Shown here piece after piece: positions 6,190 to 62,030 of a stretch of DNA of 64,000 nt. The stretch is from Candidatus Enterousia sp. (GTDB lineage Bacteria > Pseudomonadota > Alphaproteobacteria > Rs-D84). Location: the NCBI GenBank assembly GCA_045648885.1, contig JAZROV010000002.1:94628-158627 (forward strand), given 5' to 3'. Each line of letters opens with the position of its first letter. The stretch's first letter is position 1. Made by a program: the position numbers and the translations under genes. The notes beneath the pieces were generated by a model. That model had not been told where the DNA came from. It was given only the letters and a program-made list of their open reading frames with translations, and ran no database searches.

Positions 6190-6210
6190 TAAAAAGGCAG
6201 TGGTGAAATC

Positions 6211-17140: not shown

Positions 17141-17152
17141 AAAGGTGAAAAA

Positions 17153-17824
17153 ATGTTAAAGAAAATCTGTTTTTATTTGTGCTTTGGTGTATTTTGTGTG
17201 TGCGTTGGTGTCAATGCGTATGCAGAAGAATTCGAAGAAGTTTTTATTGAAGAAAGAAGTCCAGATGAAATTTCTGCCCAGGCGTTGGAAGATTACCAGG
17301 TAGAAGGTTCTTTGTTTGAACGTATTACAAATCTGGAACAAGAAAAATTAGTTATGCAATTGGAAAAAGACCGTATCGAATTAGATTTGGCGTTGGACAG
17401 ATTGAACAAAGAAAAAATCAAAATCCAACAAGAATTAGAAGATATGTCTGGGCGTGCAGACCGTCAACAGCAAGAATTAGAATTGGCCAAGGCTCAATTG
17501 GAAGAACAAACCATGGAATTGAAACGCAAAATGGAAGCGTTGGATAACAGGGTAGAAGAAGCACCTGTACAAAGAGAAACGCCAAAAAGACAAGAAGAGC
17601 CAGTCGATACATCTGTGCAGATTGTTGGTAAATATAAATTATTAAATGTTGTTGGTGTTGGTAATCAATTACAGGCTACAATTCAAGATATTGCAACGGG
17701 TCAAAATAAACGCATAGCAGTTGGTAAGCAATTAGATGGATATACTGTCAAATCTATTTCGTTAAACGACGGAATTGTGTTTGAAAAAGATGGTGTTTCA
17801 GAAAATTTGAATGTTGGAAAATAA
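17153..17824 (+). CDS. PilP/GspC-HR-like periplasmic coiled-coil protein
   Basis: Signal peptide, a long coiled coil, and a C-terminal beta-domain VGKQLDGYTVKSISLNDGIVFEKDGVSENLNV. Confidence 0.35.
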   Translation: MLKKICFYLCFGVFCVCVGVNAYAEEFEEVFIEERSPDEISAQALEDYQVEGSLFERITNLEQEKLVMQLEKDRIELDLALDRLNKEKIKIQQELEDMSGRADRQQQELELAKAQLEEQTMELKRKMEALDNRVEEAPVQRETPKRQEEPVDTSVQIVGKYKLLNVVGVGNQLQATIQDIATGQNKRIAVGKQLDGYTVKSISLNDGIVFEKDGVSENLNVGK

Positions 17825-17827
17825 AAT

Positions 17828-19456
17828 ATGGCGAACGAAGATAATTCTTTTGTAGAAATGTCAAATAAACCGTCTGTGCCAGCCGGGTTGGAGAACGCGG
17901 GCAGTAAAGACATTTTGGAATATTTGTTTTCAAATGATAATAAATTGCTGACGGCGACATCTGCGGAATATGCTTTGTCAAAAGACACCCAAGGATTGGT
18001 TGCGTATTTTTCTGGTGGTGAAATAATTATATCCAGAACACATCGATATGATGGTCGCGTGTTGGCTTTCTTAGATTTATTGCATCGTAATAATATTGTA
18101 ACAAAACAGCCGTTTTATTCTGATTTGGCGTTGTTGTCAAATATTTATAAAACAAATGATCAACGTATTGGCGAAGCAGATGCATCACGTTTTGATTATG
18201 AAAACCAGATGCAGAAAGATTTTGTTGATATTATCGCGCGTGCGGCCGCTCAAAAGGTGTCTGATATTCACGTTGAAGTTGCAGACCAGACAACAATTTA
18301 TTTCCGTATTGATGGAAGTATGCAACCGGTTTTGGAATATAATTCTCAATGGGGGGAATCTTTTGTTCGTGCGGCATTTGCGTCTGCGGATATATCTAAT
18401 TCTTCGTATGCACAAAATGAATACCAGGCTGCCCAGAAAGACGGTCGAACCCCATTGCGTGGTACGCGTGATTTGTATTTGCCGTCGGCTGTGTTGGGGG
18501 TTCGTATGCAATTTAACCCGATTGCGTTCGGCAGTCAATATTTGGTTATGCGTTTGCTTTATGATAACCCCAGCGAAGGTATCAAAACCGAACAGGAATT
18601 TAATGATTATGAACAAAAATTATTGATGCGTTTGCGTTCGGCGCCAACAGGTTTGGTTGTGGTTGCAGGGCCTACATCTTCGGGTAAATCGACAACGCTG
18701 GTGCATAATATGGCGTTGATGTTGAAAGAACACAGATACGAAATCAATTTGATTACCGTGGAAGATCCGGCAGAACAGAAAATTTTCGGCGCGCATCAAA
18801 TGCCTGTGGTGAACGCGTCTAATGAAGAACAACGTGATGCGAAATTTACAGAAGCGTTGGCAGCGGCATTGCGAAGCGACCCTGATACAATGATGGTCGG
18901 TGAGGTTCGTACTTTGTCTGCGGCGCAATTGACGGTCAAAGGCGCGTTGTCTGGGCATAATGTGTGGACAACGTTGCATGCGAACTCTGCAATGGGTGCG
19001 TTGACGCGTTTGTTGGATATGGGGGTAGAAGCGTTTAAATTAAAAGACGAAACCATGATGCGTGGATTGGTTTCAATGCGTTTGTTTAAAAAACTTTGTC
19101 CGTATTGTCGTGAACGTTTGATTGATAAACCTGATTTGCCGGTGTATCAACGTATGAAAGAAGCGTTCGGTGATTTGGGACTGCAACAGGCGTTTGTTCG
19201 TGGCGCAGGTTGTGAAAATTGCAAGGGCGCAGGAACAATCGGGCGTATCAAAGCAGGCGAAATCATTTTAACAAACAGTGAATTTTTAAGTTTCGCACTG
19301 GCCGGTGAAACTGAAGCGGCTTTGCGCTATTGGCTTGAAAAATTAGACGGCAGAACATTGAAAGAAGCCGCCATAGAATTGATGTTAAAAGGTATCATCG
19401 GCGTGGACGAAGTAGAACGTTGGGTTGGATTGTTGGACAGACCGTGGGTATATTAA
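17828..19456 (+). CDS. type II secretion / type IV pilus assembly ATPase (GspE/PilB family)
   Basis: Walker A AGPTSSGKSTT, His box TTLHANSAMGAL, and a tetracysteine zinc motif CPYCRE...CENCKG. Confidence 0.8.
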   Translation: MANEDNSFVEMSNKPSVPAGLENAGSKDILEYLFSNDNKLLTATSAEYALSKDTQGLVAYFSGGEIIISRTHRYDGRVLAFLDLLHRNNIVTKQPFYSDLALLSNIYKTNDQRIGEADASRFDYENQMQKDFVDIIARAAAQKVSDIHVEVADQTTIYFRIDGSMQPVLEYNSQWGESFVRAAFASADISNSSYAQNEYQAAQKDGRTPLRGTRDLYLPSAVLGVRMQFNPIAFGSQYLVMRLLYDNPSEGIKTEQEFNDYEQKLLMRLRSAPTGLVVVAGPTSSGKSTTLVHNMALMLKEHRYEINLITVEDPAEQKIFGAHQMPVVNASNEEQRDAKFTEALAAALRSDPDTMMVGEVRTLSAAQLTVKGALSGHNVWTTLHANSAMGALTRLLDMGVEAFKLKDETMMRGLVSMRLFKKLCPYCRERLIDKPDLPVYQRMKEAFGDLGLQQAFVRGAGCENCKGAGTIGRIKAGEIILTNSEFLSFALAGETEAALRYWLEKLDGRTLKEAAIELMLKGIIGVDEVERWVGLLDRPWVY

Positions 19457-20531
19457 TATGACAAAATTAGATTATTGGTGGGCAAAATTTAGTTTCAGAT
19501 TTGATACGCAAAAGCGTATGGCGGTCAGTAATAAAATCGCGTCATTGTTACGGAATGATTTTACTTTGATGGATGCGTTGCATCGTATTGAAATGATTGA
19601 ATCTCAAAATGGTAAAAAACCAGATGAAGCCTTTGCCATAGCTATGCGTGAAATCCAAAAAAATATGGAACAGGGGATGAGTTTTTCTGAGGCTACGCGT
19701 GGGTGGGTACCCCCAGATGAAACGTTATTATTGATGTCTGGAAATATGTCCAGTTTGGTTATATCTTTGGAAAATGTTTCGCGCGTTGTCAACGGGGTCA
19801 GTCGCATTAAACGTGCCATGACATCTGCGCTGGCATATCCGTTATTTCTGTTGGTGTTGACAATCGGTATTATTGTTATGGTCGGTGTTTATTTGGTGCC
19901 ACCATTGACAGAGGCAGCAGGCAGCAACATTGTTTGGCACGGGTCTGCACGATCTTTGATTTGGGCGTCTGATTTTTCAAATAAATATCTTTATCCTTTT
20001 TCCATAGGTTTGGGGGTTGCGATTCTTTTGATATGGATATCGCTTGCAAATTGGACTGGTAAATTGCGGACTGTGTTTGATAATTATCCGCCGTGGAATA
20101 TATATAAACTGCAAATATCGGTCAGTTGGATGATGTCTTTGGCTGCTATGGTTTCTGCGGACGTTTCTGTCCCAGATGCAATGCGGTTGTTGGCTGATAA
20201 TTCAAATCGGTATTTGGCGAATATTTTAAATGAAGCGCTGCATTATATTTCAAACGGTGATAATTTAGGAACTGCATTGGCCCAGACTGGTAAAAAATTC
20301 CCCAGTGAAGAAATCATAGGTGATTTGACGATTTATTCTGATATGAATGATTTTGATAAAAATATTAATAAAATCGCTAATGATTATATGGAAAATGCAG
20401 TGCGTCGTATGGAATCTTTGTCCAGTGCTATGAATGCAGCGGGGATGGCGTTGGTATCCGTTGTTATGGGTTGGGTCGTGTTGGGAACTTTTGCAATGCA
20501 AGAGCAAATTACGGCCGTATTGACAACCTAG
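19425..20531 (+). CDS. GspF/PilC-like inner-membrane platform protein
   Basis: 368 aa with three predicted TM helices at GspF-like positions, located immediately after the GspE-family ATPase. Confidence 0.5.
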   Translation: MDCWTDRGYINMTKLDYWWAKFSFRFDTQKRMAVSNKIASLLRNDFTLMDALHRIEMIESQNGKKPDEAFAIAMREIQKNMEQGMSFSEATRGWVPPDETLLLMSGNMSSLVISLENVSRVVNGVSRIKRAMTSALAYPLFLLVLTIGIIVMVGVYLVPPLTEAAGSNIVWHGSARSLIWASDFSNKYLYPFSIGLGVAILLIWISLANWTGKLRTVFDNYPPWNIYKLQISVSWMMSLAAMVSADVSVPDAMRLLADNSNRYLANILNEALHYISNGDNLGTALAQTGKKFPSEEIIGDLTIYSDMNDFDKNINKIANDYMENAVRRMESLSSAMNAAGMALVSVVMGWVVLGTFAMQEQITAVLTT

Positions 20532-25696: not shown

Positions 25697-26272
25697 TTAA
25701 TAATTGTATGTAAAGCCCAGACCGTAAAAAGCATATGAATGGTTTTCTTCGGCAGTGTTGGCATTCGAAAAATGTTGGATAAATAATTCCCCAGACCATT
25801 TGTCGTTAAAGTTGTATCCAAATAATACTTTGAATTCAAACAGTAATTTTGCACCCAGACGAGTGTTTTCTTTCGCCTGTAATCCCACGCCTGCACCCAT
25901 TCCAGCATATATTTTTTCGTATTTAAAAAGGGCGATATCTTCCGTCACATATGCCATAGGAACAGTATAATCAGGCCAATCCCAGCCGTATTTTTTATAT
26001 AACCCCAATGTTTCAGATATATTTATCGAACGACGCGCAGGAACGCGGAAAAATGTCGTCGGTTGAGAATATTGAAATGTGGCAATATAAAACGGAACAG
26101 GGCGTGTTGGGGGCGGTAACAAGATACCAGTGTCAAAACCCTGGCCAATGCCAAATGCAATTTGATTTTGGTATGTCCCCATGAATGGGTTGCGTTCAGG
26201 CAATATGCAAGAATCAGCCCAAGATATAATCGGACATATTACCATGAATAAAAATAAAATGGAGTGTTTCAT
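25697..26272 (-). CDS. small outer-membrane beta-barrel protein, PagL-like (possible lipid A deacylase)
   Basis: Signal peptide, alternating amphipathic beta-strands, a C-terminal aromatic residue (..TYNY) and an H-x-S-N motif (IQHFSNA) near the C-terminus. Confidence 0.35.
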   Translation of the reverse strand: MKHSILFLFMVICPIISWADSCILPERNPFMGTYQNQIAFGIGQGFDTGILLPPPTRPVPFYIATFQYSQPTTFFRVPARRSINISETLGLYKKYGWDWPDYTVPMAYVTEDIALFKYEKIYAGMGAGVGLQAKENTRLGAKLLFEFKVLFGYNFNDKWSGELFIQHFSNANTAEENHSYAFYGLGFTYNY

Positions 26273-36732: not shown

Positions 36733-37137
36733 ATGAAAGAAAAAATTTATTATTTGAAAAATTTAGACGAAACACACGCGTGGGCGCGTGATTTTGCAAA
36801 AACACTGCATGCGCCGCAAACCGTGGCTTTGCACGGTGATTTGGGTATGGGAAAATCAGAGATTGCACGCGTTATAATTAAAACTTTGCGCGGGGAAGAT
36901 ACGGTTGTGCCATCGCCTACATTTACATTGGTGCAAAATTATGATGGTATTTCGCATTTTGATTTATACAGAATTGGCGATAAATCTGAATTGGAAGAAA
37001 TCGGTTTGAAATACGCAATTGATAATGATATTACTTTGATTGAATGGCCAGAAATAGCAATGGACATTTTACCGTCAAATACAATACATGTTTATATCAC
37101 ACAAGATGGTGATGGGCGTAAATTAATGCTTCAATAA
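36733..37137 (+). CDS. tsaE: tRNA threonylcarbamoyladenosine biosynthesis ATPase TsaE
   Basis: LHGDLGMGKSEIARVI P-loop. The start MKEKIYY at 36733 lies in the frame of the longer track ORF. Confidence 0.7.
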   Translation: MKEKIYYLKNLDETHAWARDFAKTLHAPQTVALHGDLGMGKSEIARVIIKTLRGEDTVVPSPTFTLVQNYDGISHFDLYRIGDKSELEEIGLKYAIDNDITLIEWPEIAMDILPSNTIHVYITQDGDGRKLMLQ

Positions 37138-38907
37138 ACTTTGCACCGCCAATGGGAAATCGGGCGCTTTGGCAAGGTATGAACCGCTGACCAATAAATT
37201 TGCACCTGCATCCCAACATAATTTTGCAGTTTCGGGATTTATTCCGCCGTCAACACTGATTAAATATTTCAATCCGTGTTTTTTTCGTGTGTAATCTAAC
37301 ATTTTTATTTTCTGTAAAACAGATGGATTGAATTCTTGACCTGCAGCCCCAGGTGTGACGGCCATTACCATTATTTCATCAATGTCTTTTAATATCGGAA
37401 CCAATATTTCCAGATTTGATTCAGGATTGACAGCAATTCCACAACGTTTGCCAGAATTTTTTATAACATTTATTGCATCGCGAACCCCGGCAGTGTTCGT
37501 AGATATTATAATCGTGTCTGCACCAGCATTTATCGCGTCACGCGCCCAGACAGATGGGCTTTCTGTCATTAAATGGACATGCAGATGCGCGTTTGTGTTG
37601 GTGCGAATCATTGCCAATTCATCAATGCCGCCTGCGATTTTATCAACATAAAATCCATCCATAATATCAACGTGAATCATTGATATGCCGCCGCTGGCAA
37701 ACAATGTATATGTCGATGGATCACGCATGTTAAAACAAAGCGTGCTGGGTAAAATAGGGATAAACTTCTTTTTCGGCTTTGTTTTTTTCTTGTGAAATAT
37801 TTTTGTAATTTTTTTTGCAATATTTTGAATCTTTATTTGTTTTTGTAAATACGCGTTGCGTTCAGGCATACGTAATTGCCAAATGTATTCAGACAATGCG
37901 TTGATAGATGCAGATTCACTTTGATTATCAACAGGCATATTAAATGCGCGTTCAAAAACAGTGTTAATGTTTTCTATGGCGGTTCCGCCGCCGGATAAAA
38001 CGATTTTTTCAGGTTTATATTGTGCAATATATTTTTTTGATTGTTCAAAGATTTCTTTGATTAATTCATAAAGTTTCGGAATAAAGATGTCGTTCACATC
38101 TGCCCGTGAAAATTTCGAAAATTTTTCATCTGATGATGCAGGTGTAAAACGGTCCATTTCATTTGGCATCGCGTTTGCAACCAACCTTTTTAATGTGTCC
38201 GCATCCATTGTTCCAATCTGTAATTGCAGTGCCAATGTGTTTGTAATATCGCGTTGGCCAAATTTTATTTTATTGAAATAAAGCGGACCGCGATTTGTCC
38301 ATATCGATACAGTCGTGAATTCTTCGCCCAAATCTATAAATAAAATTTTTTCGTTTTCGTGTCTGAAAACCGCGTTTTGTAAAAATGCAGAATCAAAAAA
38401 ACCCGCAGATTGAATGTGCGCGCGTCGCATTATGTCAGAAATATAACGGGTGCGTTCTTGTTCATATGAAATTACGCTGTATATAGATTTTAATTGTGTT
38501 GCAATATGTCCAACCGGTGTGTTTTTTATGTTTGATATTGTCGGTGTTCCGTAAAATACAGGTATCAAATGCATTAAATAAAAATCATCGGGTGGTGTTA
38601 TTTTTGCAATTTGATGTTTCAGGTCTAATTCGGATATTTTATGTTCATCGTTCCATGTAATTGTATCGGACACGGTTTGAAAATCACAAACCCCGAAATT
38701 CCCAGTCACAAAAGTAGAATCAAAATGTGTGTTTAATTGTTTTTCCAGTTCATCAACAACATGGTTCAAAGCAAAAATCGTATTAGTATTTTTTACAAAA
38801 TGCGTTGCAGATTGTATTATTTTCGCATTTTTTACAATATGTGCAAACCCACGGACACCATATGTGCCAATATCCAGACAAAGAAATGATGAATGTGTCA
38901 AATTCAT
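37123..38907 (-). CDS. in-frame fusion of FtsA-like actin-fold ATPase (N-terminal) and ribulose-phosphate 3-epimerase (C-terminal)
   Basis: N-terminal ~375 aa show actin-fold motifs LCLDIGTYGVRG, LFIDLGEEFTTVSIW and KIVLSGGGTAI, followed by a Lys-rich linker. The C-terminal part GISMIHVDIMDGFYV...ISVDGGINPETA is Rpe. The ORF overlaps the ftsQ stop by 4 nt. Confidence 0.55.
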   Translation of the reverse strand: MNLTHSSFLCLDIGTYGVRGFAHIVKNAKIIQSATHFVKNTNTIFALNHVVDELEKQLNTHFDSTFVTGNFGVCDFQTVSDTITWNDEHKISELDLKHQIAKITPPDDFYLMHLIPVFYGTPTISNIKNTPVGHIATQLKSIYSVISYEQERTRYISDIMRRAHIQSAGFFDSAFLQNAVFRHENEKILFIDLGEEFTTVSIWTNRGPLYFNKIKFGQRDITNTLALQLQIGTMDADTLKRLVANAMPNEMDRFTPASSDEKFSKFSRADVNDIFIPKLYELIKEIFEQSKKYIAQYKPEKIVLSGGGTAIENINTVFERAFNMPVDNQSESASINALSEYIWQLRMPERNAYLQKQIKIQNIAKKITKIFHKKKTKPKKKFIPILPSTLCFNMRDPSTYTLFASGGISMIHVDIMDGFYVDKIAGGIDELAMIRTNTNAHLHVHLMTESPSVWARDAINAGADTIIISTNTAGVRDAINVIKNSGKRCGIAVNPESNLEILVPILKDIDEIMVMAVTPGAAGQEFNPSVLQKIKMLDYTRKKHGLKYLISVDGGINPETAKLCWDAGANLLVSGSYLAKAPDFPLAVQSLLKH

Positions 38908-39593
38908 TTTTTCGTTTTTACCAAAATTCTGGCATTATCACGCATGTCTATGATATCAATGTCGCGTGATAATATTTGATGTGTTTGATTTAATACGCTG
39001 ATTTTATTCACCGCAGATGCAGGGGTGTTTTCGGGTAAATAAATTGTCGTGCCGTTTTTTGTGTGAATGTTCCAGCGGCGACCTTCGACCATGTTTATAT
39101 AATCTATGTATTCAGACAATCCAGATACGTTTGCAATTATATCGGTTAAATTGTCGGGTAATTCACCACTGAATACAATCGTGTTTTCATTTGGTGTTTC
39201 AAACGGAGTGTCTATTTTTGTTCCGTCATCAGATAATGGATAATACATTGCGCCATCGGTCCACATAGCGATTGCGTTGTGTTGTTTTGTCTTGATAATC
39301 AAATTCCCATTAGGTAAACGGCGTGTTGCGGCATTTTTTATCCATGGAATAGATACCACGCGATTGTTTATTTGATGCAAATCCAGACCACGCAGTGGGG
39401 TCCCATGACGAATTCCAACCGCCATGCCAATTGGTTCCAAATCGGCGTCCCTGTGGTCAGATGTTATTTCAATATGTTTCACCGTAGATATCGGTCCGCG
39501 CCCAAGGTAAGAGGTTATAATACGCGTCGCAAAATATATTGCCAACAAAATAGACAACACAAAATACAGCCAAAACAGCAATGATTTTTTCAT
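38904..39593 (-). CDS. ftsQ: cell division protein FtsQ
   Basis: N-terminal TM, POTRA-like IEITSDHRDADLEPI, and a position upstream of the ftsA-like gene. Confidence 0.65.
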   Translation of the reverse strand: MKKSLLFWLYFVLSILLAIYFATRIITSYLGRGPISTVKHIEITSDHRDADLEPIGMAVGIRHGTPLRGLDLHQINNRVVSIPWIKNAATRRLPNGNLIIKTKQHNAIAMWTDGAMYYPLSDDGTKIDTPFETPNENTIVFSGELPDNLTDIIANVSGLSEYIDYINMVEGRRWNIHTKNGTTIYLPENTPASAVNKISVLNQTHQILSRDIDIIDMRDNARILVKTKK

Positions 39594-52562: not shown

Positions 52563-55041
52563 AAATGTTTTTAATGTTTCAGACCCAACGCATATTACAG
52601 ATGCGCTTTGGTCCATGATTGAAAAACATAAAAATAATTTTTCAGATGTTTTGATTTTTCTGCCTTCGCGGCGCGCAGTGCGTGGCGTGGAACGTATGAT
52701 TGTTGAAAAAATCGGGCATGCTGTTGTTCTCCCGAATTTAATACCGCTGGGGACAGGGGTTGAAGATGATGAATTTGATGATTGTGATTTTGATACTGTA
52801 TCAAATCAAGAGCGCATAGTCGTTTTATCCGAATTATTATCGATGGATGCGAATATAAAAAATATGTCGTCTGGTTTGCCGATAGCCTGTGATTTTGTTC
52901 GTATGCAAGATTATTTGAATAACGAAGGTATTGATATTCGTGATATAAATTGGGCAACGCTGGTTGATGAAAAATATTCAAATCATTTTCAAAACAAAGC
53001 AAAAATCTTAGACATATTAAAACAATTACCAAATGACAGAAAAACAATTACTCAAAAGCGAAATGATGATATTCGTGCGTGGATAAAAAATTTAGATAAA
53101 TATAAACTGGTTATTGTGTGTGGGTCAACTGGTTCTGTGCCTGCGACATGTGATTTAATGTGTGAGATTGTGCGTCGTGATAATGGTCGAATTATTTTGT
53201 CTGGGAAAATATCTGGAAATACATCTGATTTTACATTGGATACAAACCCATATAATTCAGAATATAAATTTTTACAGAAATTAAATTTATCAATTGATGA
53301 TGTGCAAACGATTGATGTTGGTAAAAATGATGTTATTGATATTATGAATATCGCGTTTTCAAATTCTGGTACGCATATTGATAAAAATTTAGATAATTGT
53401 AAATTGATTGAATGTGCGCGCGAAAGTGAAGAGGCGCGTGTTGCGACCGAAATAACGCGTCGCGCGATAAAAGAAAATAAATCTGTGTTGATAATTACAC
53501 CAGATGCGGCTGCAAATCAAAGAATGAAAATGGAAATGGCACGTCGTGGCGTGGATGCTGATTTTTCTTCGGGAATATCGGGAACCATGACTGATTTAGG
53601 TCGCGCGATATTAAATTTATTTGATGATTTTGCTCAAAATTTAAAATTTAAATTTGAAGATTTATATGCAGATGCAAATTACAATTTATTTGATATGTTG
53701 GTTAAATTTGTTGATGAAAACGAAAAAGATATTTTTCATCCACAATTTAAAATTGAAAATGATGATGATATCGCAATTTGGGAAAATATAAAAAACTTAT
53801 CCAATATTTTATGCGAAAATAATATCAGATTAAATTTACAGGATGCTCGTGCGTTTGTTGCGGACGCCATTGGTACTGTGTCCGTACGTGATAAAAAAGT
53901 ACAAGATTGTCGTGTTTGTGTTTTGGGGACGATTGAATCGCGTATGCAGACGGCTGATGTTGTTATATTGACGGGGTTGAACGAAGGAATGTTTCCGGCC
54001 CAGGGATATGAAAATTCATGGCTGCCGCGCGATGTTGCAAAGAAAATAGGTCTGCCGTCGCCAAATCGCAAAGTGTCTTTGATGGCGTTAGATTTTATGA
54101 CTTTGTCGTGTGGCCCAGAAGTTTATTGGTTGCGTTCAAAGCAATCTGGGGGGGCGTTGACAACCGAATCCAGGTTTTTATCCCGTGTACGTGTGGCAAT
54201 TGGCGATGTAAAAAACGATGATGAAATTTTAAATTTTGTTCGCAATCAAGATAATGTTGAATATAAACCATTGGATTATTCACCGCCAATTCCGCCGATT
54301 GATAAAAGTGATGTTTATGTGACGGAAATTGAATTGTTGATTCATAACCCATATGCGTTTTATGCAAAACATATTTTAAGATTGAAACATATGGATGATT
54401 ATTGGGTTTTGCCAGATGCGCGTGATTTCGGAATTTTGGTGCATGATGTAATTGAAAACGCGACCGATTTTAATGCGGATAGTTTAATTCGTGAAATGGA
54501 CGCACGTGCAAAAGACATATTAAAAGATAACCATGTTTTATTTTATTTTTGGCATAAACGTTTTTGTGAAATTGCGCCATTTGTTGAAAAATATTTTGAA
54601 AATAAAAAAATTGAACATATCGAAGTTTTGGGTAGCGTAAATATCGCCGGGCGTAATGTTCGTGCGCGGGCTGATTTGATTTGGGACGGTGTTGTTATGG
54701 ATATTAAAACCGGGGGGGCACCATCTAAAAAACAATTACTGGATGGAACAATGCCACAAATTGCGCTGGAAGGATACATAATGCAATCTGGTGGTTTTCC
54801 AATAAAAATGCGTGATGTTTCGATAACCCCAGTTCTGCAATTTTTACAATTAAAAAATGGCGACGTTGGTTTGATTGAATATGATGGCGATATTGCGCAA
54901 GAGATGATAGATAACACAATTCAAAAAGTGAAAGAATTATTCGGACAATACAGTGGTGATATGCCGGTCGCATACGAATATCGTGACAGTGTCGGTGTTA
55001 AATATCATGAATGGGATGATTTAGCGCGCGCAGATGATTGA
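52549..55041 (+). CDS. AddB-like PD-(D/E)XK nuclease family protein (no adjacent addA)
   Basis: 830 aa. The C-terminal D...DIKTGGAPSKK is a RecB-type nuclease motif. The N-terminus lacks a Walker A. Confidence 0.4.
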   Translation: MVLNKNVFNVSDPTHITDALWSMIEKHKNNFSDVLIFLPSRRAVRGVERMIVEKIGHAVVLPNLIPLGTGVEDDEFDDCDFDTVSNQERIVVLSELLSMDANIKNMSSGLPIACDFVRMQDYLNNEGIDIRDINWATLVDEKYSNHFQNKAKILDILKQLPNDRKTITQKRNDDIRAWIKNLDKYKLVIVCGSTGSVPATCDLMCEIVRRDNGRIILSGKISGNTSDFTLDTNPYNSEYKFLQKLNLSIDDVQTIDVGKNDVIDIMNIAFSNSGTHIDKNLDNCKLIECARESEEARVATEITRRAIKENKSVLIITPDAAANQRMKMEMARRGVDADFSSGISGTMTDLGRAILNLFDDFAQNLKFKFEDLYADANYNLFDMLVKFVDENEKDIFHPQFKIENDDDIAIWENIKNLSNILCENNIRLNLQDARAFVADAIGTVSVRDKKVQDCRVCVLGTIESRMQTADVVILTGLNEGMFPAQGYENSWLPRDVAKKIGLPSPNRKVSLMALDFMTLSCGPEVYWLRSKQSGGALTTESRFLSRVRVAIGDVKNDDEILNFVRNQDNVEYKPLDYSPPIPPIDKSDVYVTEIELLIHNPYAFYAKHILRLKHMDDYWVLPDARDFGILVHDVIENATDFNADSLIREMDARAKDILKDNHVLFYFWHKRFCEIAPFVEKYFENKKIEHIEVLGSVNIAGRNVRARADLIWDGVVMDIKTGGAPSKKQLLDGTMPQIALEGYIMQSGGFPIKMRDVSITPVLQFLQLKNGDVGLIEYDGDIAQEMIDNTIQKVKELFGQYSGDMPVAYEYRDSVGVKYHEWDDLARADD

Positions 55042-55809
55042 TTAAATTTCAAGCATTAATCCACAATGGTCGGTCGGTTTGTTGGCCAGGCGGGGGTCTA
55101 TATCTATTTCGCAATTTTTAACCATTTTTATTGCGGTTTTATTGCAAAGGAAATAGTCTAAACGAAGCCCCTGTTTGTTTTCAACTGTATCGCGGCCGCG
55201 ATAACCATACCATGTGTAATCTATATCGTTCGGATGTTTGTTGCGCCATGCGTCGACCCATCCCATATCCAGCCATTGTTGCATTATTTCGCGGGCGGCA
55301 GGTGCGGAAATAGATGATCCAACATAACCACGTGGGTTCCAAATGTCGCGGTCTTTGATTGCGACATTAAAGTCCCCGCCGATAATAACCGGTTCTTCGG
55401 AATCTATATATTGTTCCAGGTATTTAGTAAATGCATTCATCCAATCAATTTTATATGGAAATTTTGGCGATTCAATACAATCGCCATTTGGCATATACAC
55501 ATTGATTATACGAATGCGTCCGTCAATTACACATTCGAGGAATCTCGCGTTTACATCTGGATATGTCGGCAGACCCATTGTGACATCTTCGATAGAATTT
55601 TTAGAGAAAGTTGCGACGCCATTCCATGATTTTTGTCCGAATACTTTGATATTATACCCAAATTCATCGAATATATTGTGCGGAAAATTTGCTGTTTCGA
55701 CCTTTAATTCTTGGACCAATATAGTGTCATATTCGTTTTTGCGCAAAATATCCATAAAACTTTCGATATGGGCGCGTATAGAATTGATATTCAGTGTCAG
55801 TATTTTCAT
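55042..55809 (-). CDS. xth: exodeoxyribonuclease III
   Basis: MKILTLNINSIRA, and EEP-fold motifs QELK, GDFN and PTDHCGL. Confidence 0.82.
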   Translation of the reverse strand: MKILTLNINSIRAHIESFMDILRKNEYDTILVQELKVETANFPHNIFDEFGYNIKVFGQKSWNGVATFSKNSIEDVTMGLPTYPDVNARFLECVIDGRIRIINVYMPNGDCIESPKFPYKIDWMNAFTKYLEQYIDSEEPVIIGGDFNVAIKDRDIWNPRGYVGSSISAPAAREIMQQWLDMGWVDAWRNKHPNDIDYTWYGYRGRDTVENKQGLRLDYFLCNKTAIKMVKNCEIDIDPRLANKPTDHCGLMLEI

Positions 55810-55879
55810 ATTTGCAATCTTTATTTTGTAATACTATAATACACATTGTCCGATATAAAAACAACAAGGATTTTATGTT

Positions 55880-57460
55880 ATGAATATGTATCAAGTGTTA
55901 AAGCAAGTGGCGCAAGAATCGCCAAATGCTTTGTTTTTGGTACGCGAAAAAATCAGTTTTAAACAGGCTATGACCCTGATTCATGCACGGGCAAATACGC
56001 TGCATAAACTGGGGGTAAAATTCGGTGATGTTGTTGGTTTGTTGGCACATAATATACCTGAATTTCCTTTGACTCTTTTTGCGTGCTGGTATTTGGGGGC
56101 AACTGTTTTGTTGCTGGACACAAATTTAACACCGTTTGAATATGATAATATGACGAAAACGGTCGGTTGCAAATTGGTGTGTGCTGAAAAATCTTTCTTT
56201 TATGATACTAAAAAATTTAAGTTTTTTGATATTCAAACGCCAGATGATGGTGTGGATAAAGATTTAAAGCCGGCCAAAGTAGATGAAAATGATATTGCAA
56301 CTATGTCGTTTACATCTGGGTCAACCGGTACACCAAAGGTTGTTCCGTTGACGCACGGGAATTTGAAGACGTCGTCTGATTGTTATTCGGACATGGGGCA
56401 ATGGATACATAAAAATGAAATTATGTATGGATTTTTGCCGCTTTATCATGTGTTTGGTTTTGCAGCGGGGATTTTAGCGCCTTTGCATTTCCATATGGGA
56501 ATTTTATTACAGCCGACGGTGAATCCGAAAAATATTTTGGACGATTTTAAAACATATCGGCCACATTGTATTCCTGCGGTGCCACGCCTTTATGAGGTTT
56601 TTCGTAATAAAATAATCGAAGGTATCAAAGCGCAACACAAATGGTGGTTGGTTTCGTTTGTTTTGAAAAACCAAAAGTTTTTGAAAAAAATCGGCATGGG
56701 CTGGTTGGTGCGAATGATTCAAAAGCCTTTGTTGGCGATATTCGGTGGACGTGTGAATCTGATGATTGCAGGTGGTGCCGCTACAAAACCGGAAGTCGAA
56801 AGTTTCTATGAATCTTTGGGGTTGGCATTTGTCCAGGGATATGGAATGACTGAAACGGTTGGACCGTTTTGTTGTTCGCGTCCGGTCAAACACCGTGTAC
56901 CGTTTGCGTTTGGAACGCCGGTCGGATGTTCAGAATGCACTATTCGTGATATGGATGAAAACGGTGTTGGAACACTTTGGGTGCGTGGACCGAATGTCTT
57001 TCGTGGATATTTGAATAATAAATCTGCGAACGATGAATCTTTTGATAAAGATGGTTGGTTCAACACTGGTGATTTGGTCTATATGGATAAAAACAAACAA
57101 TATCATTTCGCAGGTCGTAAAAAACAAGTCATTGTTTTAGACAGTGGTAAAAATGTTTATCCTGATGAATTAGAAGGTTTGTTCATTGAAATCGAAGGCG
57201 TCAAAAATGTTGCGGTTTTTGAACACAAAGTGAATAATAAAACTGTCACATATGGCGTATTCCAGGTGGACGAAGATATGACCATGGAAAAGCTGGCTAA
57301 GGCCGTTGCAGAGGCAAACAAAAAAGTCGCGTCCTATAAATGGGTGACGCATTTTGCAATGACAACGGAAGATTTACCGATGACCAGTACTCAAAAGATT
57401 AAACATCATGTTGTTCGTCAGAATTTAATTGATGGAAAATATCCGAACAAACATGAATAA
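55880..57460 (+). CDS. AMP-dependent acyl-CoA synthetase/ligase, paralog 1
   Basis: TSGSTGTPKVV, GYGMTETVGP, TGDLVYMD and GRKKQVIVLDSGKNVYPDELE ANL-superfamily motifs. Confidence 0.75.
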   Translation: MNMYQVLKQVAQESPNALFLVREKISFKQAMTLIHARANTLHKLGVKFGDVVGLLAHNIPEFPLTLFACWYLGATVLLLDTNLTPFEYDNMTKTVGCKLVCAEKSFFYDTKKFKFFDIQTPDDGVDKDLKPAKVDENDIATMSFTSGSTGTPKVVPLTHGNLKTSSDCYSDMGQWIHKNEIMYGFLPLYHVFGFAAGILAPLHFHMGILLQPTVNPKNILDDFKTYRPHCIPAVPRLYEVFRNKIIEGIKAQHKWWLVSFVLKNQKFLKKIGMGWLVRMIQKPLLAIFGGRVNLMIAGGAATKPEVESFYESLGLAFVQGYGMTETVGPFCCSRPVKHRVPFAFGTPVGCSECTIRDMDENGVGTLWVRGPNVFRGYLNNKSANDESFDKDGWFNTGDLVYMDKNKQYHFAGRKKQVIVLDSGKNVYPDELEGLFIEIEGVKNVAVFEHKVNNKTVTYGVFQVDEDMTMEKLAKAVAEANKKVASYKWVTHFAMTTEDLPMTSTQKIKHHVVRQNLIDGKYPNKHE

Positions 57461-57490
57461 AAGATTTGGTTTTTATAAAAGGATGAAAAG

Positions 57491-59071
57491 ATGAATATGT
57501 ATGATTTATTACTTAAAAATGTAAAACGCAACCCGGATACTGTATTTCTGGTTCGCGAAAATGTGAATTTTAAAGATTTTGAAAAAATGGTGCGTGCGCG
57601 TGCGACAACTTTGCATAATGCGGGCGTGAAAGCTGGCGATGCGGTTGGTTTGTTGTCGCATAACATACCGCAATTTCCATTGACACTGTTTGCAATTTGG
57701 TATTTGGGGGCACGTGTGTTGCTGTTGGATACAAATTTAACTGCGACTGAATATGATAATATGACGCATTTAACAGATTGCAAATTGGTGTGTGCTGAAA
57801 AATCTTTCTTTTACGATGCCAAAGGTTTTAAATTTTTTGATATAGAAACAGAAGATAAAAAGACAGACGAAAAATTAAAACAATATCAATCAAAAGATGA
57901 CGATATTGCAACTTTGTCTTTCACATCTGGATCAACCGGTGTGCCAAAGATTGTGCCGTTGACACATTTTAATTTGGTTTCGTGTTCTGATAATTTGGAA
58001 TATTTAAATCAATGGTTAAAACCTGGTGAAATATTTTATGCGTTTTTGCCGCTTTATCATGTGTTTGGTTTCGCAGTTGGATTTTTAGCACCACTGCATT
58101 TCGGTATGGGAATATTGTTGCAATCGACAATCAATCCAAATGCGATATTGCAAGATTTTGCGCAATATAAACCACATGTTATTCCGGCTGTGCCGAAATT
58201 GTGGGAAATTTTCCGCAAAAAGATTATCGAAGGAATCAAAGCCAAAAAGAAGTGGGCGTTGGTTTCTTTCATTATGAATAATCAGAAATTATTGCGGGCA
58301 ATCGGTTTGGGTAAATTGGTTGATAAAGTTTTAACCCAGATTCGTTCTGTGTTCGGTGGTCGTGCCAGATTGCTGGTGGCGGGTGGTGCCGCTACAAAAC
58401 CGGAAGTGGAAAAATTCTATACTCAATTGGGTATGGCGTTCGTCCAGGGTTATGGTTTGACTGAAACCGTGGGACCAATCTGTTGTTCGAAACCATTGAA
58501 AAAACGTGTTGCATATGCGTTCGGTGCACCGATGGGTGATACAGAATGTCAAATTCGCAATAAAGACGAAAATGGTATTGGAATGCTTTGGGTGCGCGGT
58601 AACCAGATTTTGGGTGGTTATTTGAATAACGCAGATGCAAACAAAGACTGTTTCGACAAAGACGGATTTTTCTGCACTGGCGATTTGGTGTCTGTTGATA
58701 AAAACGGTGAATACCATTTTGCAGGTCGTAAAAAACAAGTTATTGTTTTGGACAGTGGTAAAAATGTTTATCCTGATGAACTGGAAGGTTTGTTCATTGA
58801 AATTCCAGGCGTGAAAAATGTTGCGGTCTTTGAACACGAAGTTGGTGGCAAAACTGTTGCATACGGTGTGTTCAGCGTCGAAGAGGGCATGACGATGGAT
58901 AAATTGGCGGCGGCTGTGGCGGCCACGAACAAAAAGGTTGCGTCTTATAAGTGGGTGACGCATTTTGCGATGACGACCGATGATTTGCCAGTGACCAGCA
59001 CTCAAAAGATTAAACATCACGTTGTGCGTCAATGGTTGATTGATGGTAAATATACACAAAGACATGAATAG
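57491..59071 (+). CDS. AMP-dependent acyl-CoA synthetase/ligase, paralog 2
   Basis: Same motifs as paralog 1. Identical length (526 aa) with long identical stretches. Confidence 0.75.
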   Translation: MNMYDLLLKNVKRNPDTVFLVRENVNFKDFEKMVRARATTLHNAGVKAGDAVGLLSHNIPQFPLTLFAIWYLGARVLLLDTNLTATEYDNMTHLTDCKLVCAEKSFFYDAKGFKFFDIETEDKKTDEKLKQYQSKDDDIATLSFTSGSTGVPKIVPLTHFNLVSCSDNLEYLNQWLKPGEIFYAFLPLYHVFGFAVGFLAPLHFGMGILLQSTINPNAILQDFAQYKPHVIPAVPKLWEIFRKKIIEGIKAKKKWALVSFIMNNQKLLRAIGLGKLVDKVLTQIRSVFGGRARLLVAGGAATKPEVEKFYTQLGMAFVQGYGLTETVGPICCSKPLKKRVAYAFGAPMGDTECQIRNKDENGIGMLWVRGNQILGGYLNNADANKDCFDKDGFFCTGDLVSVDKNGEYHFAGRKKQVIVLDSGKNVYPDELEGLFIEIPGVKNVAVFEHEVGGKTVAYGVFSVEEGMTMDKLAAAVAATNKKVASYKWVTHFAMTTDDLPVTSTQKIKHHVVRQWLIDGKYTQRHE

Positions 59072-59131
59072 TTTGATTTTGCGCCTGGGGGTATTTTTCC
59101 CCCAGACGCAATTTAAAAAAAGGTTTGTATT

Positions 59132-60712
59132 ATGAATATGTATCAAAAATTGGAAAATGCAGCAAATCAATGGCCGGAAAATTTATTTCTGGTGCGCGAA
59201 GGTGTAACGTATTCTCAATTTATTCAACAGGTGCGTGCGCGTGCAGCAACTTTGAACGAATTAGGAATTAAACATGGTGATGTGGTTGGTGTTTTATCTC
59301 ATAATTTACCACAATTTCCTTTGACGCTGTTTGCAATTTGGTATTTGGGTGGTGTTGTTTTAATGCTGGATACGAATTTGACGCCTTTTGAATATGATAA
59401 TATGGCGCAAATTGCAAATTGCAAATATGTTTGTGCGGAACCATCGTTTTTCTATAAAACAGATAAATTCAAATTTATAGATATAACACGCAAAGACGGG
59501 GATATAGATTATGATTTGCGTCCATATCCATCTGAATCAACGGATATTGCGACTATGTCTTTCACATCGGGGTCAACCGGCACGCCAAAGGTTGTTCCGT
59601 TAACACATTTTAATTTAACAGAATGTGCAAATTCATTGGAAGATATGTCTGATTATTATCATTCTGGTGAAATAATGTATGGCTTTTTGCCACTTTATCA
59701 TATCTTTGGTTTCGCGGTTTGCATATTGGGGACAATTCAATATGGGGGCGGTCTGGTATTACAGCCGGTTATAAACCCAAAATATATTTTGGACGATTTT
59801 CAAAAATTCAAACCACACGTTATCCCAATCGTGCCACGCGTTTTGGAATTGTTCCGTAATAAAATTATCGATGGAATGAAACAGCAAAAAAAATGGCGCG
59901 TTGCATCGTTCATTTTGAATAACCAAAAAACTTTGAAAGATATGGGGCTAGATTTCGTTGTTCGCAAAGTCCAAGAACCATTGTTGGCTATTTTCGGTGG
60001 ACGTGTAAAATTGCTGATTGCGGGTGGTGCGGCCACAAAACCAGAGGTTGAAAATTTCTATGAATCACTTGGACTGGCGTTTATCCAGGGTTATGGTTTA
60101 ACCGAAACTGTTGGGCCAATTTGTATTTCAAAACCGACAAACAAACGTATGCCATATTCTGTGGGTGCATCTACATCAAACAACGAATGCGAAATTCGTG
60201 ACAAAGATGAAAATGGCGTCGGTGTTTTGTGGGTGCGTGGACACCAGGTGTTTAATGGATACCTGAATAATCCAGAAGTCAATGCGACAGTTTTTGATGA
60301 AAATGGCTTTTTCAATACTGGCGATATGATGTACATGGATAAAAACGGCGAATTGCATTTTGCAGGTCGTAAAAAACAAGTCATCGTTTTGGACAGTGGT
60401 AAAAATGTTTATCCTGATGAACTGGAAGGTTTATTCATGGAAATTCCAGGCGTTAAAAATGTTGCGGTCTTTGAACACAAAGTTGGCGATAAAACCGTTG
60501 CATACGGCGTATTCCAGGTTGATGAAAATATGACGCTGGAAAAATTGTCGGCCGAAGTTGCAAACGCAAACAAAAAGGTTGCATCCTATAAATGGGTGAC
60601 GCATTTTGCGATGACAACGGATGATTTACCAATGACCAGCACGCAAAAGGTTAAACATCATCTGGTGCGACAAAATTTGATTGACGGTAAATATCCAGAC
60701 AGAAAGGAATAA
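59132..60712 (+). CDS. AMP-dependent acyl-CoA synthetase/ligase, paralog 3
   Basis: Same motifs as paralog 1, 526 aa. A terminator lies downstream at 60716-60745. Confidence 0.75.
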   Translation: MNMYQKLENAANQWPENLFLVREGVTYSQFIQQVRARAATLNELGIKHGDVVGVLSHNLPQFPLTLFAIWYLGGVVLMLDTNLTPFEYDNMAQIANCKYVCAEPSFFYKTDKFKFIDITRKDGDIDYDLRPYPSESTDIATMSFTSGSTGTPKVVPLTHFNLTECANSLEDMSDYYHSGEIMYGFLPLYHIFGFAVCILGTIQYGGGLVLQPVINPKYILDDFQKFKPHVIPIVPRVLELFRNKIIDGMKQQKKWRVASFILNNQKTLKDMGLDFVVRKVQEPLLAIFGGRVKLLIAGGAATKPEVENFYESLGLAFIQGYGLTETVGPICISKPTNKRMPYSVGASTSNNECEIRDKDENGVGVLWVRGHQVFNGYLNNPEVNATVFDENGFFNTGDMMYMDKNGELHFAGRKKQVIVLDSGKNVYPDELEGLFMEIPGVKNVAVFEHKVGDKTVAYGVFQVDENMTLEKLSAEVANANKKVASYKWVTHFAMTTDDLPMTSTQKVKHHLVRQNLIDGKYPDRKE

Positions 60713-60715
60713 ATA

Positions 60716-60745
60716 AAAACGGGCAAATCGCCCGTTTTTATTTTC
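60716..60745. terminator. bidirectional rho-independent terminator
   Basis: aacgggcaaatcgcccgtt hairpin with a T-run. Confidence 0.6.
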
Positions 60746-62030
60746 CCAAACATAATCTGGAAAATGTCATATCCGCAATTTCGTTGGTTGTAATTACACC
60801 AAGTATTTTCCCAATCGCATCGGCGGCGTGACGAATGTATTCTGAAAATATATCGTAATTGCCGTTGTATTTATTTACTGCATTGGTCAATTCATTTATT
60901 GCGTCGGTCAATAATTCATATGTGCGTTCATTTATTGCCACACGTGATTCGCTGCCCGACATTAAATTATTCATTTTTTGTTTTATTGTGTTTAAGAGTA
61001 TATCAAAACCTTCATCTTTTTTCACAGACGTATAAATCACGTTTTTATTGTTTTTGTTTTTTATCAAATCAGATTTATTTATAACCGTGATTTCATTCTT
61101 ATTTATGTGTTTTGGAACATCGTTATAAACGTGAATAACCAGGTCTGAATTTTCGATTTCTTGATGGGTTCTTTCGATGCCTATTTTTTCAATAGTGTCC
61201 GTTGATTCGCGGATTCCTGCCGTATCCGACAAATTGACCAGATATCCATCGATGTCCAATTGTGTTGATACTACATCACGCGTAGTGCCCGCGATATCAG
61301 AAACAATTGCACGGTTATACCCAACCAGTTTATTAAATATAGATGATTTGCCAACGTTTGTTTCGCCAATCAAAGTTATATTAAAACCGTTACGCAATGC
61401 GCGATTTGCGCGAAAACCATCAATTGCAGATTTTAATTCATTCAATAAATTTTGTGTTTCAAATAATATCTTTTTATCAATGTCTTTTGGTAAATCGTCA
61501 CTGTCGTAATCAAGAATGGCCGCCCCATACGCGGATATTTCAATCATTTTGTTGCGCCAATCGGCATAGATTCGTGAATCGCCGCCGGTCAACGATTTCA
61601 GCGCGCTTTGTCGTTGTTTGTCGGTTTGTGCGTCCAAAAGTGCGATTAAACCATCTACATCGGTTAAATCCATTTTGTTGTTATAAAATGCGCGTCTTGA
61701 AAATTCACCACGCGTTGCAATTCGTGCGCCATGTGCGCGCAAAAAATTAAAGATTTTATTTATTACTGCGGGTGAACCATGTGAATGAATTTCGATAATG
61801 TCTTCGCCAGTGAAAGAATGGGGCGCAGCAAAAAACACAACAACACATTGGTCAATTAAATCGCCATTATCATCGCGCAGGTTTGTAAAATATGCATGAC
61901 GTGTATCGAATTTGTTTTTGTTTATAATGTGTCCAAAAAGTTCGGATAAATTATTACCGCTGATGCGGATGACTGCGACGCCTGATTTTCCTGGCGCAGA
62001 TGATAATGCAAATATTGTGTCGTTATTCAT
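60738..62030 (-). CDS. mnmE: tRNA modification GTPase MnmE
   Basis: GETNVGKSS G-domain and the C-terminal CLGK tetrapeptide. Confidence 0.85.
   Translation of the reverse strand: MNNDTIFALSSAPGKSGVAVIRISGNNLSELFGHIINKNKFDTRHAYFTNLRDDNGDLIDQCVVVFFAAPHSFTGEDIIEIHSHGSPAVINKIFNFLRAHGARIATRGEFSRRAFYNNKMDLTDVDGLIALLDAQTDKQRQSALKSLTGGDSRIYADWRNKMIEISAYGAAILDYDSDDLPKDIDKKILFETQNLLNELKSAIDGFRANRALRNGFNITLIGETNVGKSSIFNKLVGYNRAIVSDIAGTTRDVVSTQLDIDGYLVNLSDTAGIRESTDTIEKIGIERTHQEIENSDLVIHVYNDVPKHINKNEITVINKSDLIKNKNNKNVIYTSVKKDEGFDILLNTIKQKMNNLMSGSESRVAINERTYELLTDAINELTNAVNKYNGNYDIFSEYIRHAADAIGKILGVITTNEIADMTFSRLCLGK

Follow-up and report, generated by a model that had tools for sequence, protein, structure and literature searches.

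Acyl-acyl carrier protein (acyl-ACP) synthetases charge exogenous fatty acids for lipid synthesis, bypassing or replacing type II fatty-acid synthesis (FASII) (PMC12086093, PMC6167442). Borrelia burgdorferi has two fatty-acid coenzyme A (CoA) ligases, bb0137 and bb0593, which work with the PlsC protein bb0037 (PMC8929704). Within the ANL (AMP-binding) enzymes, fatty acyl-AMP ligases (FAALs) bear as marks an insertion of ~20 aa in their N-terminal domain and a helix that blocks the CoA pocket, and non-FAAL members accept either thiol (PMC8460268). Here we describe three adjacent ANL ligase genes, copies A, B and C, in a 64,000-nucleotide stretch of DNA (the window) from Candidatus Enterousia, a gut and rumen alphaproteobacterium with a genome of ~0.9 Mb. 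The finding is real yet ordinary, being an ancient lineage-specific tandem expansion with divergence confined to the substrate-binding domain. The genes lie as follows.

55880-57460, + strand: copy A, 526-aa ANL ligase, first gene of the A-B-C triplet by orthology
57491-59071, + strand: copy B, 526-aa ANL ligase, the most derived copy at paralog-specific sites
59132-60712, + strand: copy C, 526-aa ANL ligase, the conservative copy and ortholog of the lone gene in single-copy Enterousia species

The three proteins align without gaps, with amino-acid identities of 68 % (A/B), 67 % (A/C) and 64.5 % (B/C). Nucleotide identity among the genes is 70-71 %, the longest exact run in common is 47 nt, and the spacers measure 30 nt (A-B) and 60 nt (B-C). 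The three head-to-tail paralogs of 526 residues reported in a preliminary description of the window are thus borne out. Their equal length is a family trait, shared by 122 of the 140 members extracted from 80 related loci, and so is no sign of recent duplication.

All three copies match Pfam PF00501 (AMP-binding) with E values of ~1e-63 to 1e-66 and scores of 212-222 bits against a cut-off of 29.9, in line with the AMP-dependent ligase identity first proposed for them. An AlphaFold2 (AF2) model computed from a 58-sequence alignment (predicted local distance difference test, pLDDT, 83.2; predicted template modelling score, pTM, 0.77) has an ordinary ANL fold, with a large N-terminal domain followed by a C-terminal domain of ~120 aa, and Foldseek matches it to more than 50 ANL structures at a probability of 1.00. 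Motifs A3 (SFTSGSTGTPKV), A5 (QGYGMTETV), A7 (NTGDL), A8 (AGRKKQVIVLDSGKNVYPDELE) and A10 (TSTQK, ending at residue 506) are intact in each copy, and K506 pairs with the catalytic lysine of 4-coumarate:CoA ligase (4CL) in a HMMER alignment. By sequence and predicted fold, A, B and C are ANL enzymes with intact catalytic motifs.

Between the paralogs, residues 1-404, the N-terminal domain, are 59-64 % identical and residues 405-526, the C-terminal domain, 84 %, as expected from the N-terminal divergence noted at the outset. Two stretches within the C-terminal domain are almost invariant.

57110-57193 (A), 58721-58804 (B), 60362-60445 (C), + strand: first shared block, ANL motif A8, AGRKKQVIVLDSGKNVYPDELEGLF, codons 411-438
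57320-57379 (A), 58931-58990 (B), 60572-60631 (C), + strand: second shared block, KKVASYKWVTHFAMTTEDLP in A, codons 481-500

The first block reads AGRKKQVIVLDSGKNVYPDELEGLF(I/M)EI and varies at position 436 alone; the second reads KKVASYKWVTHFAMTT(E/D)DLP, varies at position 497 alone, and runs into the A10 motif TSTQK with Lys506. The preliminary description had quoted both stretches; both are present, and they are not special to the triplet. Block columns are on average ~94 % conserved over the 140 family members and are largely present in distant relatives too, and the A8 core VLDSGKNVYP[DE]ELE recurs in relatives in which the ligase is fused to a carrier domain and a PlsC-type acyltransferase. 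The blocks are the A8 and pre-A10 motifs of the whole subfamily, with protein constraint therefore as the main explanation. Concerted evolution as the source of the identical blocks was mostly rejected, because the blocks are whole-family motifs.

A weak signal of exchange between copies was found in one place. In codons 405-450, the proportion of synonymous differences between B and C has a median of 0.42 within a genome versus 0.56 between genomes; the within-genome drop occurs in 24 of 25 genomes, compared with 15-19 of 25 for other 46-codon blocks. In the window itself, the synonymous divergence (dS) between B and C is 0.20 in codons 405-450 and ~1.2 in codons 1-404. For A-B and A-C, a similar drop was confined to the set of 12 genomes whose copies all measure 526 aa. 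These values weakly suggest occasional short-tract gene conversion in the A8 block, the remainder of each gene evolving independently.

The segment that varies most between the paralogs is also the one that sets the family apart in structure.

56591-56764 (A), 58202-58375 (B), 59843-60016 (C), + strand: three-helix insertion segment, codons 238-295, placed by alignments and the AF2 model

The insertion comprises ~35 aa (residues ~252-290) between the 'VPR' helix and the 'GGR...AGGA' strand, with helices at residues 255-263, 265-270 and 274-287 modelled at a pLDDT of ~89-93. It is missing from 4CL, where the alignment jumps from query 237/target 281 to query 296/target 303, and from Escherichia coli FadD and Aas. 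Identity between the paralogs falls here to 52-60 %, making it their least conserved part, and the insertion is common to the ligase-carrier-PlsC fusions.

The age of the array is evident from its distribution. Our scan of relatives, which took one genome per species, returned 281 relatives, of which 80 loci were kept; all come from metagenome-assembled genomes (MAGs) of uncultured alphaproteobacteria or Candidatus Enterousia from rumen, gut or faeces, and one kept genome, with a single-copy locus, is closed at 958,618 bp. About 28 loci carry the A-B-C order with 1:1 orthology, 24 of them with three complete open reading frames (ORFs), and identities of the orthologs to the window copies are 80-89 % for A, 78-90 % for B and 83-93 % for C. 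Two copies occur in five loci, three copies in the order C-like, B-like, other in two loci, and a single C-like copy in 43 loci. In an outgroup-rooted neighbour-joining (NJ) tree with 100 replicates, bootstrap values reach 100 for all tandem-locus genes, for A, for B together with the middle genes of the C-B-A loci, and for the C-like genes of all multi-copy species, and 93 for the C-like plus single-copy genes; the deeper order of duplication receives only 12-40 %. A concatenated tree of six flanking proteins joins the A-B-C species in one clade that neighbours the species with C-B-A or C-A order, the single-copy species standing apart. Triplet orthology and the flank tree together place the triplet in the common ancestor of the whole species clade. 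Counting copies in related genomes, a check that the preliminary description had proposed, thus reveals a lineage-specific expansion from one to two to three copies at a fixed locus. Its history may be one early duplication followed by losses, or stepwise gains with accelerated A and B.

Several observations accompany this distribution. Paralog order varies in sister lineages, with a C-like gene before an A-like gene in L029, L032 and L038, an A-like before a C-like gene in L028, and C-like, B-like and a third copy in L045 and L056. These changes occur beside the same flanking genes and with gene orientation unchanged, so that a simple inversion cannot explain the differing orders; independent duplications or whole-gene conversion are possible. 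Copy C of L015 (MAG RUG11949) is split into two overlapping ORFs (13210-13935 and 13701-14768; 241 and 355 aa) and is either a frameshift pseudogene or a sequencing error. Among MAGs with a body site in their title, those with three copies come mostly from rumen or reticulum and those with one copy mostly from colon, caecum, rectum or faeces, a correlation confounded with phylogeny. One further ANL paralog, the fourth and a distant one (P0121; 529 aa; identity to copy C 43 %), occupies L081 10001-11590, where it adjoins nrdD/nrdG in Enterousia assembly GCA_045530935.1; the single-copy locus L058 is from the same assembly.

Comparison of the window with 11 orthologous triplets gave ratios of nonsynonymous to synonymous divergence (dN/dS) of 0.04-0.10 per copy at dS > 1, with 0.066-0.089 for A and 0.053-0.098 for B; ortholog dN is smallest for copy C (median 0.066). 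Purifying selection is strong on all three copies. Between the paralogs, for which a dN/dS comparison had also been suggested, dN is 0.25-0.28 and dS is saturated at ~1.0-1.3. We then counted as paralog-specific any site whose conservation reaches 90 % or more in the A, the B and the C orthologs taken separately but whose residue differs between these sets. All 39 such sites fall within residues 17-407 and none in the C-terminal domain, with clusters at residues 151-175, 201-250, 276-300 and 326-350. Departures from the single-copy consensus at the 39 sites number 19 in B, 16 in A and 9 in C. In HMMER alignments, site 296 (I/V/I in A/B/C) aligns with Lys303 of Populus 4CL1 and site 330 (F/I/I) with Val338, and residues 192 and 196 align with Tyr236 and Ser240. 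These 4CL residues are ones that, from 4CL structures, we take to line the substrate pocket.

We next consider what kind of ligase the array encodes. The family is isolated: an exhaustive HMMER search of 1.84 billion cluster representatives found the next full-length relatives at only 35-43 % identity, and these also score below every curated family cut-off. Several of them are 815-850 aa long, and the five that we scanned (P0129, P0131, P0133, P0134, P0138) have the architecture AMP-binding, PP-binding, PlsC. Over the whole ligase, the fusions are 35-37 % identical to the Enterousia enzymes (E = 1e-88 to 1e-96), and in the rooted NJ tree the Enterousia clade lies inside a group with them. An alignment of A, B and C with P0121, P0125, P0128, P0130 and the five fusion proteins shows that, besides the A8 core, the fusions share the A10 motif LPxTST[QK]K and the helical insertion with its GLG. 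Unlike the fusions, the Enterousia ligases stand alone, lacking a PP-binding or acyltransferase domain. In the fusions, the acyl group would pass to a carrier thiol and then to a glycerolipid acceptor, which points to lipid acylation through a phosphopantetheine arm as the business of the subfamily. The fusions are themselves uncharacterised, and point to glycerolipid acylation via a carrier thiol without proving it. Bacterial FAAL-like domains fused to lysophospholipid acyltransferases have also been mentioned (PMC8460268). Nothing about function could be learnt from the genes around the outgroup ligases P0121, P0125 and P0129. An ANL-LplA fusion, P0124, was dropped; it lies on a single 3.9-kb contig, and the 78-aa ORF downstream is not an ACP.

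Membership of the FAALs was rejected, as the Enterousia enzymes have neither the FAAL insertion nor the CoA-blocking helix. Between A5 and A7 the enzymes have ~10 residues fewer than 4CL (query 316-407 versus target 372-473), residues 211-215, where the FAAL helix is expected by approximate mapping, form a loop in the AF2 model, and the sole insertion, at residues 252-290, sits elsewhere than the FAAL insertion. Since non-FAAL ANL enzymes take either thiol, the acceptor is not decided by sequence alone.

The physiological setting bears on the acceptor as well as on the substrate. Genomes of Enterousia (order Rs-D84) are smaller than 1 Mb; biosynthesis of lipids, amino acids and nucleotides, the tricarboxylic acid (TCA) cycle and respiration are reported absent, and fatty-acid synthesis is reported as not complete (PMC12306168). 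The window encodes LpxC, LpxK, a DUF374 protein, PagL, LolC/LolD and an AsmA-like protein, and its lipid A genes identify the organism as a diderm that makes lipid A.

12869-15460 (+ strand) and 25697-26272 (- strand): DUF374 protein, LpxK, LpxC and PagL-like lipid A 3-O-deacylase, in the window

Lipid A is thus still built, and its deacylation is possible, despite a reduced genome with incomplete fatty-acid synthesis. In the Enterousia locus L055 (17994-19501), from a genome with one ligase copy, LpxD and FabZ score above curated cut-offs; their genes lie ~6.5 kb downstream of the ligase gene, past lspA, yidC, infB and nusA, and the next gene is lysS instead of lpxA. The presence of these ACP-dependent proteins implies ACP in Enterousia. 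By tblastn, E. coli FabD, FabF, FabG, FabH and LpxB had no match in 1.6 Mb of Enterousia DNA, which samples a small part of any one genome. The neighbourhoods of full-length LpxI genes contained no lpxD-fabZ-lpxA cluster, and the small ORFs nearby were not ACP. On two contigs, L084 and L085 (2882-4961), phage capsid genes (Phage_capsid_2, Phage_T7_Capsid) and a cell-wall hydrolase gene lie a few kb from lpxI, possibly a prophage remnant in a genome of <1 Mb.

We consider it somewhat more likely than not that the array serves to salvage different exogenous fatty acids for envelope lipids through three specialised ligases. Each isozyme would bind a free fatty acid and ATP and form the acyl-adenylate in its N-terminal domain; the C-terminal domain would then rotate, and the acyl group would move to a 4'-phosphopantetheine thiol. 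The products would feed the acyltransferases of envelope lipids (phospholipid, lipid A, lipoprotein). A single ancestral gene beside xth would have duplicated in place, with C keeping the ancestral character and A and B altering residues that line the acyl pocket as well as the family-specific helical insertion. Given these changes in A and B, the trio most likely partitions the range of available fatty acids, which it could divide by chain length, unsaturation or hydroxylation. That the substrates are fatty acids, that the copies differ in specificity and which acceptor they use are what we infer here, and for the acceptor we slightly favour holo-ACP, that is, acyl-ACP synthetase activity, over CoA. 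What tips us towards ACP is the existence of fusion relatives, the need of LpxD and FabZ for ACP, and the report that respiration and the TCA cycle, which beta-oxidation would feed, are missing. The preliminary description had proposed substrate diversification for scavenging host fatty acids, and in a reduced-genome scavenger this is the most plausible purpose. Its alternative use of the products for glycopolymer decoration found no evidence linking the genes to it. Its name for the enzymes holds in part: they are ligases, but 'acyl-CoA' is a default label, as the best NCBIfam match reaches 218 bits against a cut-off of 476 and, given multidomain relatives that load a carrier domain in cis, ACP is no less likely than CoA to be the acceptor. 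We regard 'acyl-CoA ligase' as a provisional name.

A more specific version can be sketched, which we regard as speculative and, taken as a whole, unlikely. Here, A-C would be acyl-ACP synthetases of an uncharacterised subfamily, unfused equivalents of the ligase-carrier-PlsC proteins, that replace the de novo supply of acyl-ACP in a diderm still making lipid A, with one copy for the 3-hydroxy or unusual acids used by LpxA and LpxD and the others for saturated and unsaturated chains from rumen lipolysis and biohydrogenation, the increase from one to three copies being an adaptation to a foregut rich in free fatty acids.

Several points weigh against fatty-acid salvage by way of ACP. The subfamily is biochemically uncharacterised, and no curated NCBIfam model reaches its cut-off, the best being NF004837, a long-chain-fatty-acid-CoA ligase subfamily (205-218 bits versus 476). 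The closest solved structures, 4CL, MenE, oxalyl-CoA and malonyl-CoA ligases, are at most 23 % identical and are not fatty-acid enzymes; Foldseek ranks ttLC-FACS only 33rd and the acyl-ACP synthetase AasS (8i8d) 48th. The template used to map the pocket is an aromatic-acid ligase to which the alignment is remote. Of the two E. coli enzymes compared, FadD resembles copy C more (27 % identity over the full length, E = 1e-38) than the synthetase domain of Aas does (24 % over 345 aa, E = 3e-15). FabZ is retained in L055, so that the reported 'no fatty-acid synthesis' is to be read as 'incomplete', and E. coli AcpP, PlsX, PlsY and PlsC found no tblastn match in the same partial 1.6 Mb of DNA. Lastly, the flanks (xth, addB, mnmE, ruvA) are unrelated housekeeping genes with no link to the ligases, and the genomic context gives no functional hint.

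Of the other readings, the one that survives best takes A-C to be classical FadD-type acyl-CoA synthetases with acyl-CoA-using acyltransferases downstream; the logic of diversification would be the same, with only the acceptor differing. We hold this possible but less than likely. The Joint Genome Institute (JGI) label of one family member, 'long-chain acyl-CoA synthetase', agrees with it, as do best NCBIfam and PDB matches that are CoA ligases, the higher similarity to FadD than to Aas, and the lack of a FAAL-type insertion, with a loop at 211-215 where, by approximate mapping, FAALs have their CoA-blocking helix. CoA is also used by Enterousia, as some of its genomes have Pta/AckA. The matches to CoA-ligase families, however, are all far under curated cut-offs, with the FadD model NF006523 scoring 136-154 bits against 884, and the catabolic use of acyl-CoA is missing if respiration and the TCA cycle are absent as reported. 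LpxD and FabZ require acyl-ACP, and the closest multidomain relatives pass the acyl group to a carrier domain rather than to CoA. As non-FAAL ANL enzymes accept either thiol (PMC8460268), the sequence similarities to CoA ligases are not decisive.

Non-fatty substrates, such as phenylpropionate or phenylacetate, branched short-chain acids or dicarboxylates, all plentiful in the gut or rumen, for an unknown salvage or detoxification route, seem improbable to us. Ligases of the 4-coumarate, o-succinylbenzoate, feruloyl, oxalate and malonate kinds head the sequence and structure matches, ANL specificity is not reliably transferable at 20-27 % identity, and the pocket positions differ among the paralogs, all of which this reading would accommodate. 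Yet the FadD signature region (FadD 431-455) is about half identical in copy C (12 of 25 residues; NGFFNTGDMMYMDKNGELHFAGRKK), with much of it overlapping the generic A7 and A8 motifs, and a glycerolipid (PlsC-type) acyltransferase is attached to the ligase in the nearest informative relatives. The reduced metabolism reported for the lineage offers no obvious use for aryl-CoA or short-chain acyl-CoA, and the window showed no genes for a menaquinone or aromatic pathway.

Still less probable is functional redundancy, with copies kept for dosage and their differences due to neutral drift. The identical catalytic motifs and the 84 % identity of the C-terminal domains are compatible with it, but three lineages have each been held at a dN/dS of 0.04-0.09 across species with saturated synonymous sites, the paralog dN is 0.25-0.28 with the 39 paralog-specific sites clustered in discrete segments of the N-terminal domain, and redundant copies are unlikely to last in a genome of ~0.9 Mb. 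For an assembly artefact from an expanded or collapsed repeat we found no supporting point, and this, like a recent duplication, is ruled out by the ~70 % nucleotide identity with a longest common run of 47 nt, the saturated dS, and the recurrence of the 1:1-orthologous triplet in ~28 MAGs assembled independently by different projects, as befits the genuine diverged copies first described.

Signals for transcription of the array are listed below.

55812-55840, + strand: promoter-like site TTGCAA-17 nt-TATAAT in the 70-bp intergenic region between xth and A, ~40 nt upstream of the A start
57461-57490, + strand: A-B spacer, 30 nt, unstructured, with AAGGA before the B start; minimum free energy -2.7 kcal/mol, z = -0.4
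59079-59111, + strand: GC-rich hairpin in the B-C spacer, GCGCCTGGGGG-loop-CCCCCAGACGC, without a U-tract; -23.8 kcal/mol, z = -3.4
60711-60743: bidirectional intrinsic terminator of copy C (+ strand) and mnmE (- strand), AAAAACGGGC-AAATC-GCCCGTTTTT

The promoter-like site, with 10 of 12 consensus matches, is the best in 54900-61000; it is a consensus match only, the regional total of such sites not exceeding that of shuffled sequences. AAGG(A) precedes the start codon of each of A, B and C. The B-C hairpin sequence is unique in the window. Hairpins of unrelated sequence occur in the B-C spacer of ~11 of 26 orthologous loci (besides the window, L001, L003, L004, L009, L010, L012, L014, L019, L024 and L076), mostly without a U-tract, and never in the A-B spacer. 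The element is possibly a partial terminator, a processing site or an mRNA-stability element. The terminator after copy C had been noted before and is indeed present, its hairpin and T-run folding at -21.1 kcal/mol (z = -6.5) and none of 200 shuffles folding as well. The single operon read from it in the preliminary description agrees with the promoter-like site before A and the terminator after C and is complicated by the hairpin in the B-C spacer; the arrangement is most likely one operon with an internal attenuating or stabilising element.

The array is bordered by two genes on the opposite strand.

55042-55809, - strand: xth, upstream neighbour of the array, divergent
60738-62030, - strand: mnmE, downstream neighbour of the array

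Further neighbours are rsmI, engB, an addB-like gene, ruvA, yebC and secB. The ligase gene or genes adjoin xth in every related locus, and mnmE-ruvA-yebC usually lie downstream.

Elsewhere in the window, an FtsA domain (PF14450, residues 190-330) is joined to a ribulose-phosphate 3-epimerase domain (PF00834, residues 402-578) in a 594-aa ORF at 37123-38907 (- strand), an unusual cell-division/pentose-phosphate fusion directly downstream of ftsQ (38904-39593, - strand). Positions 41-8807 and 10833-11903 form a surface-glycan cluster of low GC content (28-32 % versus ~38 % elsewhere), possibly acquired horizontally, with GT1 and GT2 glycosyltransferases, an FkbM methyltransferase and a 1275-aa protein combining GT1, GT2 and CDP-glycerol glycerophosphotransferase. 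By eye, four ORFs of the cluster share a DUF7024-like module (motif SPxxLGxSxDxRxLGxG); in three of the four it receives a Pfam score, all close to or under the 24.4-bit cut-off, and 6211-7176 gives no Pfam match. Between the cluster genes, at 9188-10378 (+ strand), lies the gene for a 396-aa protein with an Mtd_N domain (PF18454, E = 6e-15), of the phage receptor-binding or diversity-generating retroelement (DGR)-target type, with no reverse transcriptase noticed nearby. Positions 15893-20531 (+ strand) hold a set resembling type IV pilus or type II secretion system (T2SS) genes, encoding a PilO-like accessory protein, a coiled-coil protein, a T2SSE ATPase (17828-19456) and a PilC/GspF-like membrane protein (19425-20531); type IV pili have been reported only for the UBA9783 lineage (PMC12306168).

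Three copies kept by purifying selection in a genome of ~0.9 Mb mark an indispensable function, most plausibly the uptake of foreign fatty acids for the envelope, in a widespread uncultured gut and rumen lineage whose nutrient acquisition is poorly understood. Should A-C turn out to be acyl-ACP synthetases that differ in the chains they prefer, the making of phospholipid and lipid A by a diderm whose fatty-acid synthesis is incomplete would be accounted for, and function could begin to be assigned in a large unannotated ANL subfamily to which the ligase-carrier-acyltransferase fusions also belong. The case also counsels caution with the automatic label "acyl-CoA ligase".

Compared with known systems, the Enterousia ligases combine common ANL features with a distinctive insertion. 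The best PDB matches by sequence (E = 1e-32 to 1e-35) and by fold, 4CL and MenE, served as templates for mapping the pocket; they differ in being at most 23 % identical, in having aromatic substrates and in having no helical insertion. E. coli FadD and the bacterial fatty acyl-CoA synthetases (FACS) are likewise stand-alone enzymes of similar size with the ANL fold and all core motifs; unlike them, the Enterousia enzymes carry the ~35-aa helical insertion, score far below the FadD/FACS cut-offs and have no beta-oxidation context. Borrelia is not known to have fatty-acid synthesis. It depends on a host, has limited biosynthesis and uses more than one fatty-acid ligase for lipid and lipoprotein synthesis (PMC8929704), a role like that proposed here for the Enterousia array; its ligase genes are not in tandem, unlike that array. 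Acyl-ACP synthetases, represented by Vibrio harveyi AasS, E. coli Aas and Chlamydia AasC, are remote in sequence, with 24 % identity over 345 aa to Aas and 18 % to AasS (8i8d), neither of which is a close relative among the characterised enzymes compared, but they share with the Enterousia ligases both the fold and the role proposed here.

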